64,000 nucleotides of DNA from an uncultured Bacilli bacterium (lineage in GTDB: Bacteria > Bacillota_I > Bacilli_A > RFN20 > CAG-826): the NCBI GenBank assembly GCA_905235705.1, contig CAJOML010000001.1:12118-76117 (forward strand). The letters are read 5' to 3'. The notes under the pieces were generated by a model, which saw only the letters and a program-made list of their open reading frames with translations, was not told where the DNA came from and ran no database searches. Shown piece after piece: positions 241 through 41,200 of the stretch. Both the position numbers and the translations under genes were made by a program. Numbering within the stretch: the first letter of the stretch is position 1; every line of letters begins with the position of its first letter.

Positions 241-2040
241 TTAGTAACGGTCGTCTTCATCATATGGATTATCTTCATTTTCCATATAATCATAAACCAT
301 ATAATTGACAAGCCTTCTTCTGACCTCTTCTTCAGGTAGTTCATCAACTAATTCCTCATATCTTTTACTTATTTCTTCGATTTTCTTATCGTATTCTCTT
401 TCTCTTTCTTCCAAATGTTCATAATAATGATTTCTTTCATCTATTGCTTGTTGGGCTTCATCAGGAAATATAGAAAAATACACCGCCATTTTATGCTTAC
501 AAATTGTTGATTTGCCAGCGGCATGAGGACAAGTGCAAGTGGATTTTCTAGGGTGGTTTATATTTAAATGAACATGATAATTTTCTGTTCCTTCTACTTC
601 GGCCTCATACTCATATTCATTTATTCTGTTTATTGATTTAACCCTATTGTTTTCGAAGTATTCTAGACCTCTCCAGTAAGAGTTATAACTACATATTTCT
701 CTCATTCCCATTATTGAATAATCTCCCAATACCCTGTTTTTCTCGATTCCATTCTCTTTAATATATCTTTTTTCATCACTATAAATAGTAGGTTTAGATT
801 TGCCTATTTTTTTAGATAATTCTGGAATAGTAATGTATTTGTTTTTTCTAATTTCACCTAGTATTGTTTTATCCAAATCGTTTATCTTATCGTTTATCTT
901 ATCATTTATCTTATCATTTAGAAAATTAGTATTTCTTAAAAATGTGAACGTGAAGCCAAATTCGTCGTTCTTATATTCGTAATCAACATTATTCTTAATA
1001 CACAAAGTAAAAGTTCTATCGAACCCGGTTCCAAATGCATCAATATATCCACACTTATAAAGGACTGATGCTATTAAAATATTCCGAATTTTGCTTCCAA
1101 TTTCTGATGAAGCAAATTTCATTGGATCTAAATTTTTATAAATTGATCCAGGATTATAGATGTTAATGGACGATTTAAAAATAACAATTTGATTGAAGTC
1201 GCCTTTAATATCATATTTACTATGAGCAAAACTATTAACTACTATCTCTCTAATGGCATTTAATGGAACTTCTGGCGTTTCAACTCTTTGTATGCCAATA
1301 ATATCCGATTTGTAGGAAATATGATTTTGAATATAAGAAGTTGCTTCCTTAATACACTCAAATATATTTCCTCTAAATTCTTTTATTTCACCAAACTCTG
1401 TCCTTGTATCTGTTGGATAATTAGCCTCTTTTAGCACAATTGGTTTTCCGTTTCCAAACAAATAGTAACCAGCTGTTTTTATTCTTCCGTTTTCATCAAC
1501 TAAATCCAGTTTAGTCAAAGCCTCACGAACATTTCTATATACATAATTCAGCCTGCCTTTGTCATTCGCAGTTCTAATAACATCAATAAGAAGTTCTTCA
1601 TCAATATCATCAAAAGAATAGTTAGTAGGTTTATCTTCCCATCTAGAATAATTGTCCTCTTTTTCTTCAAAATATTTTTGAAGCTGATTATTACTCATGG
1701 GAATATCGCCGTCGTCTACACGATAATAATAGCGGCCATAAGCCGAGTATGGAGTGTCGTCGCCTTCAACATAAACTCTAATGACGTCAACATTTTCATA
1801 TTTTATAGTCTTTACTTCTAGTTCAATCGGAAGAGGTTTTAAATTCGTTCTAATTTCATTAGAAATATCGGAAAGTGTTTTCTTTGAAATATCAAATCTA
1901 TAAGGCTTTTTTTCTGGAGTAATGCCAAAGAATAATTCACCTTTATGATTCTTATTCAGCATTGAGCTGAGTGAAATGACTCCTTCTTTCAATTGAGCCA
2001 AAGATTTTTTGTATTCGATAAGCGTGTTTTCGTCTTTCAT
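241..2040 (-). CDS. AlbA_2 (Schlafen-like)-HATPase_c_4-wHTH protein ('RecG-like' ATP-binding family) with C-terminal SWIM zinc finger
   Basis: N-term E...IEYKKS...SMLN...GELFFGI (AlbA_2); AIREIVVNSFAH..Y, IYNPG, RNILIA, GTGF (HATPase_c_4); ITIPELSKKIGKSKPTI (HTH); CTCPH...CKH (SWIM); GGAGGAG RBS at 2046-2052. Confidence 0.85.
   Translation of the reverse strand: MKDENTLIEYKKSLAQLKEGVISLSSMLNKNHKGELFFGITPEKKPYRFDISKKTLSDISNEIRTNLKPLPIELEVKTIKYENVDVIRVYVEGDDTPYSAYGRYYYRVDDGDIPMSNNQLQKYFEEKEDNYSRWEDKPTNYSFDDIDEELLIDVIRTANDKGRLNYVYRNVREALTKLDLVDENGRIKTAGYYLFGNGKPIVLKEANYPTDTRTEFGEIKEFRGNIFECIKEATSYIQNHISYKSDIIGIQRVETPEVPLNAIREIVVNSFAHSKYDIKGDFNQIVIFKSSINIYNPGSIYKNLDPMKFASSEIGSKIRNILIASVLYKCGYIDAFGTGFDRTFTLCIKNNVDYEYKNDEFGFTFTFLRNTNFLNDKINDKINDKINDLDKTILGEIRKNKYITIPELSKKIGKSKPTIYSDEKRYIKENGIEKNRVLGDYSIMGMREICSYNSYWRGLEYFENNRVKSINRINEYEYEAEVEGTENYHVHLNINHPRKSTCTCPHAAGKSTICKHKMAVYFSIFPDEAQQAIDERNHYYEHLEEREREYDKKIEEISKRYEELVDELPEEEVRRRLVNYMVYDYMENEDNPYDEDDRY
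877..920. repeat. 12-bp tandem repeat ATCRTTTATCTT x3.7 inside CDS (encodes NDKI repeats)
   Basis: Units at 877-888, 889-900, 901-912 and partial 913-920. Confidence 0.95.
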
Positions 2041-2059
2041 ATAAGCTCCTCCGCTTCGA

Positions 2060-2090
2060 ATTTATCTTATCATTTATCTTATCATTTATC
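2060..2090. repeat. Second copy of the same 12-bp tandem repeat, upstream of the RBS
   Basis: 2061-2088 is identical over 28 bp to 893-920. Confidence 0.95.
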
Positions 2091-2309: not shown

Positions 2310-2396
2310 TGGTGGCCCCCGTCGGACTCGAACCGACACCTGCTCATCACAGAGTGGATTTTGAGTCCACCGCGTCTACCATTCCACCAGGGGGCC
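2310..2396 (-). tRNA. tRNA-Leu (CAA)
   Basis: Acceptor GGCCCCC/GGGGGCC-A-CCA; anticodon arm GTGGA-CTCAAAA-TCCAC; long variable arm; GTTCGAGTC T-loop; 87 nt. Confidence 0.97.
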
Positions 2397-38203: not shown

Positions 38204-41200
38204 TCACGGGGTAACCGAATATCCCGTGTTTTTATAACGACTATTCGAATTTGTTTTGCCATAAGTTGAGTTATACATCGCGTTGCTGGCGGTCATGGCG
38301 TTGCTGTTAATGTTGTAATGGGTATATTTAATAAGCCAGCCGCTCGTGTATGACGAATAAGAATACATATTTACTTTGTGCGAGGAACTAGTCCAAGCAT
38401 TGGTATAAGCCCCAGAAGAAGCGATGTTGGAAATTGATAAATTGAAAGAGGCAGTCGCGGCTTGGATGCCGATTAATGAAAGACCGAAACTGCCGCTTGC
38501 TGAATACAAAGATTTCTTTGAATATCCGCTATATGTGGCGGTTTTGCCGGAGATATTGATGACAAAGTCGGTTAATATGCTGGTCCCAGTCAATCCCTCC
38601 ATCCCGATGGTTAATCGCCAAGATGGATTGGTGGTGTTTCCGCTTGAGGTAACGCCTTTGACGATGTCTTCGCCATGTAATGCTCGGTCGGAGGAAATGT
38701 CGTCTAGGCTAGAGGTAAGACTGCTTTTCATGCCTAAAATGTAGTTCAATAACCATTTCAATATGTTATCCATGAAATTTTCCCCGGTGACACGTTTATA
38801 ACTCTCACTAAAGTCATCGGAGAATACGGTGCTTGGTTCATGAACGTAACGCCGGAAGAATAAGTCTCCTCCAGTTTGGTTATCCCCATCGTTTTCATAA
38901 AATAGGTTAACGTAAGTATTTCCATCGTTTACCAAAGTTATTTTGGGGGTATAGATTGCCCCTACCATCTTGATCTCGGTTCCATCAAGGTAGACGACTA
39001 AATTTATTGTGATGGTCGTTTTTATACCAACGATCGACAAGACGACATTTCCTGAAATGTGGTAGGTGGTTAAGGTCGAAGAATCGGTTACGCCCAAGGT
39101 AATTGTCCCTAGCAAGAAGTCGATTAATTGTTTTAAACACGAATATGAGGTGAAAGAGGAAATGGATGGATTTTCACCCCAATTAAAATCGCTAGCCCTA
39201 GATAAACTGGTTTTGGCCAATTCGATCTTGACGTAGATTTCGCTTCCTTCCGAAGAGGATAAAGAAGGCATATAGAGCTCAATATATTTAGGGAGCCCCT
39301 TCTTTACGTTTCCTTCAACGATGCGGTCTTCACCATAGGTGATACGTAAAGAAGTGGGGACGTTTTCTTTGATTAAGGACGGCTTTAAGACAAACGTGTC
39401 GACGTTGGTCACATTATTGATATCGACGGAAGATAAAATGCCCGAAGAAACGACTTCGAGATATTGTCCCTTCATAATGGCGCCGAAGGTGGTCTTGGTT
39501 TTTAAATCGGTGAAAGCGGAAGTCAAACGTTTAAAACGTGGATCGGTGGAGGTCAATAACTCGGTGAGGGCGTCGAGAACACCGTTCATCGAATGGATGG
39601 AGAAGCGTCCATTCAACCCGTTTTTATTGGTAGGATCAGTAGGTGAATAGTTGCGATTGGTTGAAGTGTTATATCCGTTTTTGGCTTGGCTAGTGTTCAC
39701 CGAGGAATAGGAGAAAAGCATCATTCCGCCGGCACTAGTGTCATTACCCGAGAAATCGCCATTGGTCCAATTTGTCTCTTCCTCATCTGAAGAGGCTTCT
39801 AATGGGGCTCCGGTGACGTCGATTGCGAGGGTATGGTCGTTGATGTAATTCTCTTTACGGTCGGTGAAAATGACCTTCCCAGTCCCGATTTTGTTATACA
39901 AATCGAATCCGAGGCTACCGTTAAAAAGCATGCCCTGTTCATTTAGGTTCTTCGTCCCATCCCAGCTTGAGACGCTTTGGCGGATGTTGCTATGGTTATC
40001 GCTACCTTTTTTGGAAATATAGCCGCTGATATTGGCCTGAACCTGGGTGTTAGGAGATTCTTTTGTGCCGGCAGCATCGGCAATATATTCGTCCCAGCTT
40101 GGTAAATGGGCCATTTCCTGATAGGAAGAAAGGTCCAGGGCATCGATTTTGGCATTAGAAAAGGGTCTTAAGGTCAATAGACCGTCTAAGGTGAAAGTCA
40201 AATTGGGAGAATTTGTCGTGACTATGCCGACTTGATCAAGATCAATCGAAAGGAGGCTGGTGGCCGAATCGGTGGCGTCTAAAGTCGCCGATACCTTCCC
40301 TACCATTTTGGCTTGGAAACCTGTGCCATTTAACTTATCGAGGTCAACTCTCACAATCAATTTGTTTTGGCTCACCCTTAGCGTTGAAATCGCCTCGACG
40401 GCGGTGTGATATTGGCCTGAATCGATGACATTATAGATAGCCGAACCGGTTACGGCGTCAAGAGCGTTAGTGATGGAATCCATGGAAGCCACAACACCGG
40501 CAATGAGGTTTTTGATGGTGTCGTTTTGGATTCCTTCCATGCCTAAGGCTTCTTTTAATGTGGTGGCAAGGGAGGAAAGAGTGGACATTCCGGTCGAGGC
40601 CTTCATCACGCTTTCGTTTAAGGCGATGTAGGCTTTGGTATCTTCTGTTTCTTCTTGAAGAAGAAGGGATATCTTTTCTTGATTGCCGTTCATCGATAAA
40701 GCGGCCTCGCCGAATACTTTTTCAAATGCCCCACCTTCAAAAGAGGCGTCGGCAGATAGGCTTAAGGTCGCGTTTTCGGTGACGGCGTCACGCGAGAAAG
40801 CGGTGGAAGAACCTTCAACCGCCTCTTCGTGGTGGTAGATATTAAACGAGGCATCAATGCCAAACCGTTTGCTAGAAACATAGTCGCCCACATCTTTGAT
40901 GAGATCGATGGAAGAGGAGATTTCAACATAAGACTCGGGATCTTCAGGGGTAAGGTTTTTGATGGTGGTGGCAGGACTTATGGAGGCGGAGAAAGATATC
41001 TCTAAGCCGTCTTCGCTTTGATAGGGGCTTTCTCCTTTTAAGGGAAAATCGATGCCAGATAAAACGGCGGAAGAATTGGCGATTAGGCCAAAGGATAAGG
41101 TCTTCTCGCCTAGAGGCAGGTCATAACGGAAGTAGCCGGATTCGATTTCCTCGATTTGGTCAAAGGAGGCTTTGATTTTGTCCCCGTCAATGGTAATGCC

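Follow-up and report, generated by a model that had tools for sequence, protein, structure and literature searches.

A 12-bp repeat shared by the linker and the upstream region of a prokaryotic Schlafen gene is likely an operator for the gene's own winged helix

The window analysed here is a 64,000-nucleotide stretch of the draft genome of an uncultured Bacilli bacterium (contig CAJOML010000001.1). Near one end of it, just 3' of tRNA-Leu(CAA), begins an insert with a GC content of 27-33% against 46% for the genome, and this insert carries a Schlafen gene followed by a small SWIM zinc-finger gene (Table 1). The Schlafen gene has the domain order Schlafen/AlbA_2, HATPase-like, HTH (Pfam; the winged helix-turn-helix, or wHTH, is intact in contigs of the sequencing runs), and its AlbA_2 domain contains an Ex4ExK motif (E4, E9 and K11). 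The motif in its broader form, Ex4(E/D)xK, is present in 80 of 91 and in 104 of 120 homologs, several of the misses being miscalled starts. No full-length PADLOC or NCBIfam model was found for the window's Schlafen, and the stand-alone SWIM protein matches the N-terminus of the PADLOC candidate PDC-S62 (E 7e-17). An AlphaFold model of a homolog (L003; pLDDT 64, pTM 0.34) served for domain boundaries and fold search only, and its linker region is predicted with low confidence (residues 369-385, pLDDT < 50). With this model Foldseek returned fold matches to SLFN11/12/13; the structures that the predicted fold most resembles are Corynebacterium DIP2311 (PDB 3LMM) and the N-terminal domain 2KYY (E 1e-12 and 2e-4), structural-genomics entries with no function listed and about 15-23% identity to the homolog. 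In the window's clade the AlbA_2 domain (1850-1930) reads FGITP where most relatives have G(V/I)xD, and the acidic residue after the glycine is absent.

Table 1. Features of the Schlafen locus (window positions)
Feature	Positions	Strand	Remarks
tRNA-Leu(CAA)	2310..2396	-	
Upstream array, 2.6 direct copies	2060..2090	-	Between likely promoter and RBS; putative operator
RBS GGAGGAG	2046..2052	-	Sequence
Schlafen/AlbA_2 domain, aa 4-115, predicted RNase	1696..2040	-	PF04326, E 1e-13
RBS + AlbA_2 + HATPase_c_4 segment	921..2059	-	Absent between arrays in G017, same locus
HATPase_c_4 ("RecG C-terminal") domain, aa 283-362	955..1194	-	PF13749, E 1e-10
In-gene array, (NDKI)n linker, 3.7 copies	877..920	-	Putative second operator; observed deletion endpoint
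Winged helix-turn-helix	711..882	-	PF13412, aa 387-419; frameshifted in assembly, intact in 4 runs
SWIM zinc-finger gene, 156 aa	241..711	-	PF04434; start overlaps upstream gene's stop; local passenger

As assembled, positions 241-2040 form a single 599-aa open reading frame; its wHTH is cut short within the recognition helix, and the frame continues into the SWIM gene. Fourteen extra bases behind position 778 are present in contigs of all four runs, in the related locus L010 and at the same locus in another genome of the genus (G017); the best run contig with these bases covers 1-920 and otherwise shows no difference, at a depth of 17.6 of 20.8. Because all of these sources carry the 14 bases, the fused frame likely reflects a fault of assembly or a minority variant, probably the former, and the usual allele would therefore be a 447-aa gene ending at 711 with a separate SWIM gene. 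An earlier reading of this DNA from its letters alone (the sequence-only reading) overlooked the frameshift, and its assumption of a separate SWIM gene holds for the common allele.

Two arrays of one 12-bp unit mark the Schlafen gene, one encoding the linker in front of the wHTH and the other standing 7 nt from the RBS. Tandem Repeats Finder (TRF) detects both, with a period of 12, and sequence comparison confirms what the sequence-only reading had pointed out, namely that 893-920 and 2061-2088 are identical over 28 bp and 1168 bp apart. Allowing at most one mismatch, the 12-mer occurs six times in the window against 0.75 expected, five times inside the arrays and once in isolation at 40328. 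A two-unit 24-mer with at most five mismatches finds the two window arrays and nothing else within the 1.26-Mb, 77% complete draft genome. A promoter scan at the window was at chance level (7 found, 11 expected), and an RNA-run contig (X15) spans 239-2097, which is not proof of transcription.

It had been proposed from the sequence that gene-specific matches between upstream region and linker be compared with shuffled pairings. We ran this comparison on HATPase_c_4 genes drawn from relatives, other Bacillota, Bacteroidota and metagenomes: 266 ORFs were reduced to 200 complete ones by dropping those that were incomplete, shorter than 380 aa or preceded by less than 150 bp, near-duplicates also being removed, and dereplication at 90% left 151 genes, 57 of them with a linker array. 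For 25 of the 57 arrays, the 200 bp upstream of the same gene contain a match of at least 11 bp, compared with 11 of 7625 unrelated pairs, which is far above the shuffled expectation (10,000 permutations; mean 2.9, maximum 10). Under the same strict rule the match was seen in 19 of 41 arrays at 70% dereplication and in 8 of 23 at 50% (permutation mean 0.34), and the control regions gave low but nonzero counts (mid-CDS 3/57, downstream 2/57). By orientation, 6 of the 25 upstream matches are direct, 8 inverted only and 11 both. A softer rule applied to a larger set (187 genes, 73 arrays) found matches in 41 of the 66 genes that have an intergenic region to themselves and in none of seven operon-internal genes (Fisher p 0.002), against a background of 156/4175. 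The pairing is far from universal: 32 of the 57 arrays lack a strict upstream match, 25 of the 66 genes with their own intergenic region (about 40%) fail the softer rule, Bacteroidota examples mostly have the linker array with no upstream twin, and 114 of the 187 genes, close NDKI-group homologs among them, have no linker array. Where arrays exist they range from 2 to 10 units. De novo picking of upstream motifs was noisy and was kept out of the statistics.

Among close homologs of the window's gene we found 11 related loci, nine with a visible start region, and in seven of these nine the upstream word is the same; L007 has a variant word and L006, whose gene is frameshifted, has none. Three loci (L001, L004 and L005) carry the upstream word without a linker repeat, in both orientations in the latter two, and 120 close proteins either have an NDKI linker or a variant of it such as NDRI, or lack one. 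Because close homologs keep the upstream word even when the linker repeat is missing, we regard the upstream element as conserved and the linker copy as optional. Other members use other units. In Mycoplasmopsis arginini (WP_129694532.1) the upstream sites match that gene's own, different linker unit, and three paralogs in the window's genome differ from each other: L503 (G000:C58) has a DPIT linker and a matching inverted/direct pair around TATAAT, L015 (G000:C37) has an upstream-only array with a 21-bp period, and L292/L505 (G000:C28) is a 5'-truncated gene with a (VGNK)n linker. Fic-wHTH genes of the genus (L296-L300) have conserved direct and inverted TGCACTTTAA words just upstream; neither they nor the Fic-wHTH gene L464 has a linker array, and Fic genes therefore contribute one supporting case (L458, below) and no upstream/linker match. 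Phage and plasmid homologs are distant only, and a scan of viral contigs with the NDKI alignment turned up no relative in any of 290 candidate stretches.

Two homologs (L073 and L074) have two wHTH domains each, each flanked by (NDTI/NDTV)-type repeats, which suggests that array and wHTH duplicate as a module. Six genomes of the genus (G055, G011, G031, G032, G005 and G007; 1.8-2.4 Mb) hold 15-25 HATPase_c_4 matches apiece, a large expansion of a little-studied family.

Codon choice in the linker points to constraint on the DNA as well as on the protein. Across the NDKI units of seven genes K is AAG and I is ATA in 18 of 18 cases, compared with 19% and 32% elsewhere; D is GAC in all 47 DQIN units of 14 genes, compared with 31% elsewhere, and in 15 of 15 DPI(N/T/K) units (these counts omit L111 and L007, a false pattern match). 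Outside the linker, one codon is kept in only 24 of 134 invariant-residue columns of the seven NDKI genes. The linker's minority codons spell the upstream word, and an identical DNA unit is kept across genes that are ~57-78% identical in protein and have diverged at their other synonymous sites. These data support the earlier suggestion that the linker is under selection at the DNA level. In the DQIN subfamily (35 representatives; L160 and L216 have miscalled starts) a TATAAT-like box usually stands between inverted half-sites, and this pair changes in step with the linker unit of the same gene, as could be tracked gene by gene through DQIN, DPVN, DPIN, DSIN, DPIT, DAAN and SPNK; by inspection, sites flank such boxes in many relatives. 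The inverted half-sites match over 11-14 bp without flanking identity. In L186/L187 the array, the upstream sites and the basic residues of the helix are all lost together, and there are exceptions to the tracking: L176 has a changed linker unit with an unchanged upstream site, and L167 is another. The same site is found at the likely promoter and in coding DNA, where it is constrained as DNA.

The identity of the protein that reads the unit can be approached by covariation. Similarity of the motif between genes correlates with similarity in eight recognition-helix columns (partial r 0.25-0.27, 0/2000 permutations, 42-49 genes that include non-independent kin) after correction for N-terminal and remaining-wHTH similarity. 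The remaining wHTH gives a partial r of 0.00-0.07 and N-terminal relatedness 0.17-0.19, and in a sliding window the correlation with the motif peaks on the recognition helix. Because kin are not independent we take this as support, not proof, that the site changes with the recognition helix of its binder, a modest effect. The Fic-wHTH protein L458 shares both unit core and helix with the HATPase-type L137, L262 and L466. Finally, the two-unit pattern is present in 17 of 58 genus genomes, each time at an intact copy, a broken copy or the vacated site of a Schlafen gene, with 0 control hits, and this restriction to Schlafen loci argues against a host regulator.

Altogether the gene-specific match, the constraint on the linker and the covariation with the helix support the first proposal of the sequence-only reading, in which the gene would carry its own operator and its two arrays would co-evolve; looping between them, like the RNase and anti-phage activity of the Schlafen, is a prediction from sequence. 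We favor a model in which the 12-bp unit is the operator of the gene's own wHTH at both the upstream and the in-gene array, and in which arrays of the same direction are deletion endpoints, and we consider this model as a whole likely. Binding of the unit by the gene's own wHTH is its firmest element and highly probable; we are fairly confident that the upstream site represses, and the in-gene array probably works as a second site, the least secure of these claims. On the simplest account the Schlafen would be autorepressing, its wHTH binding the array between promoter and RBS and lowering its own transcription. Either the linker or the region behind the stop would provide a second site, which could act as a loop partner, a roadblock or a sink (titration) and so tighten control of a predicted toxic RNase. 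Where the arrays point in the same direction, ordinary repeat recombination would drop the segment between them, and such alleles reach fixation. At the window's locus, deletion would leave the SWIM gene under a promoter without its repressor.

Natural alleles lacking precisely the segment between the repeats exist in the genus. Among 17 array-bearing genomes, 9 are intact (2 broken by contig ends) and 8 have array-bounded deletions: five run from upstream to linker array (G015, G014, G017, G035 and G005), two remove the whole gene (G012 and G026, compared with G054/G037) and one removes the wHTH only (G003, compared with G032/G020). After a tRNA-Lys, the deleted G015 and the intact G053 have flanks that are 98.8% identical over 1459 bp and 98.4% over 1712 bp, and in G015, known from assembly alone, the upstream array is joined to the linker array. 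G017 is the window's own locus in deleted form (tRNA-Leu flank 90% over 172 bp; wHTH and SWIM 91.5% over 729 bp): AlbA and HATPase are gone between the arrays, the wHTH has decayed by frameshifts and SWIM is intact. A wHTH profile search, by which G007, G008 and G078 were found, recovered orphan array-plus-wHTH pieces without an in-frame start codon; for these three genomes, as for G035 and G005, we infer deletion from the anatomy of the locus, no intact allele of the same site having been seen. Because the remnants in G017, G005, G008 and G003 are decayed, assembly error is unlikely there. Twelve of the 26 short wHTH ORFs that do not lie at a contig end start at an array and have no N-terminal blastx match, two or three of them retaining a few N-terminal residues by eye. 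Contigs of the four runs contain no joint of a 1168-bp deletion or circle, an absence that carries no weight, since the contigs are interrupted at the arrays and rare forms are lost from them.

These alleles divide the second proposal of the sequence-only reading, a switch in which recombination between the direct repeats excises a 1168-bp circle and leaves the SWIM gene behind. The deletion exists, at the window's locus included, and SWIM is intact there; a dedicated switch with a persistent circle is unsupported. A more modest version is a selected one-way off-switch, with direct arrays kept mainly since recombination usefully often drops RBS, Schlafen and HATPase. Deletions in 8 of 17 array-bearing genomes and the 12 short ORFs that begin at an array are what it would leave behind, but upstream copies that are inverted only (8 of 25) offer no route to deletion, genes that have no linker array still keep upstream motifs, the covariation of codons and helix requires a reader protein, the decay of remnants indicates that the change is not reversed, and the run contigs hold no joint; we judge this version unlikely. 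Because arrays can be inverted, remnants decay and no shared recombinase was found among the ORFs inspected, we favor a by-product, or an escape in one direction, and not a programmed switch: the deletions would follow from having two identical arrays, and may be favored as the gene is costly.

In many relatives there is a third copy, after the stop codon, that the sequence-only reading overlooked. The upstream element is repeated within 250 bp after the stop in 23 of 178 genes, compared with 10 of 2796 unrelated pairs; these copies occur mostly in genes without a linker array, are mostly 35-104 bp and often abut the stop. In 11 of 12 ortholog pairs (judged on spacer letters; the pairs are not independent) an upstream copy resembles the downstream copy of its own locus more than the copies of the other locus, and the two therefore exchange sequence. 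A more far-reaching reading is that a widespread class of immune nuclease genes is framed by its own operator and that the site does double duty, a protein-held loop both setting expression and bringing the copies into register for recombination. The operator could then act as an att site that needs no recombinase, at which the toxic module is dropped or swapped or the whole gene moved, and helix and operator would diversify together, insulating up to about 25 paralogs per genome. We regard this extension as speculative, with a small chance of being right. In L036, L048 and L333 the stop codon of the gene seems to be provided by the post-stop copy of the putative operator or to overlap with it.

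The post-stop copies, their likeness within loci and the solitary position of NDKI genes in differing housekeeping neighbourhoods could also be explained by an operator-framed mobile cassette, in which the gene or its N-terminal module exits as a circle and re-enters at a matching operator while loops align the sites. We consider this quite improbable. No circle was seen in the contigs of the four runs, which drop rare forms, and at gene-free apt loci no unit lies within about 1.5 kb in 15 of 15 genomes examined (of 17; relatives ~70% identical; a single locus), which argues that no target site lies waiting. Nor was a dedicated recombinase found: of 12 neighbourhoods one has an integrase gene nearby (29 of the 72 ORFs listed were scanned, the rest read by eye). 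Loss explains empty sites equally well. When vacant sites of the TGAAGT subfamily were sought by pattern, hits came from 4 of 58 genomes, all adjoining the gene.

Neutral local duplication or slippage, with a low-complexity linker repeat and an upstream twin that is a recent functionless copy, would account for the variable copy number (2-10 units), for a linker that most genes do without (114/187) and for copies homogenised within loci, which recombination too can keep alike. It is very unlikely to be correct, given that the unit is kept at protein identities where synonymous sites have diverged, that inverted half-sites match between unlike flanks and that the unit covaries with the recognition helix. 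It is hardly credible that the repeats act as RNA, as the arrays of type III toxin-antitoxin systems do, or that they are bound by a host regulator such as Fur, whose sites the GATAA-rich unit resembles: they do precede a predicted RNase, and those of the window probably fall in the 5' leader, but either orientation is used, copies stand on both sides of a -10-like box, the array occurs nowhere else in the window's genome nor away from Schlafen loci in the 58 genomes, and paralogs in the same genome (L503, L015) use different units.

Several known systems come close. The lac O2 operator in lacZ and gal OI in galE are auxiliary operators inside coding DNA, and the window gene is like them in having a main operator at the promoter and a second site in coding sequence, here both putative. 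It is unlike them in that the second site is a deletion endpoint, is tandemly amplified, lies as a linker in the predicted binder's own gene and differs from gene to gene with the helix. Lambda O has the iterons of the origin inside its gene, and plasmid Rep proteins autorepress through iterons; there, as in the window gene, a winged-helix protein has direct-repeat sites in or beside its own gene, whereas the window family consists of chromosomal single-gene inserts with a nuclease domain. Among defence regulators, the wHTH of the BrxR/CapW wHTH-WYL proteins binds a site overlapping the promoter of the defence locus, according to passages of the report describing them (PMC9122589). As presented there these are separate regulators with one inverted repeat, whereas in the window gene regulator and effector are fused and the site recurs in or after the gene.

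The architecture itself has been catalogued. In the main-text passages of a survey, pSlfn-HisKinase-HTH makes up 19.2% of 5,930 prokaryotic Schlafens, fused domains are treated as probable sensors, and the two Schlafen systems shown to defend are other fusions, the tested HisKinase-type not being among them (PMC13056530). This class, as described in those passages, shares its domain order and the Ex4(E/D)xK motif with the window gene; operators, linker repeats and deletions are not discussed in them. We found no description of such arrays in the literature, of which subscription papers were largely outside our scope. What is new, in our view, is the occurrence of putative self-operator arrays as linker/upstream pairs in HATPase_c_4 Schlafens; the architecture, auxiliary operators inside genes and iterons were known.

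Tetrapeptide linkers, usually dismissed as low complexity, thereby gain a testable meaning at the DNA level, and one of the largest and still uncharacterised prokaryotic Schlafen classes gains a regulatory model. Since each gene displays its own site, the family offers dozens of naturally occurring helix/operator pairs built on a single wHTH scaffold, a library that could be used to derive a recognition code and orthogonal repressors. The deletions also reveal a defined route of loss for a costly gene, with three deletion types set by its own sites. If autorepression is indeed tight, it may matter for how Schlafens are assayed for defence.

The far end of the insert has features of its own. 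Just left of the window (G000:C1 10407-12234) the translations contain, by eye, macro-domain-like and Sir2-like genes. In contigs of runs X1 and X3, position 2311 is linked to 164-181, joining the 3' flank of tRNA-Leu to the insert's far end (depth 33 in X1, with a short side of only 33-45 letters); this joint could reflect a duplication of the island's end, a tandem cassette, a circle or DNA of another organism. At 191-237, in the gap where the Sir2-like and SWIM genes converge, stand three GGAACC(G/A) words at an exact 20-bp spacing, a triplet that is unique in the genome and may be what remains of the operator of a different gene since lost.
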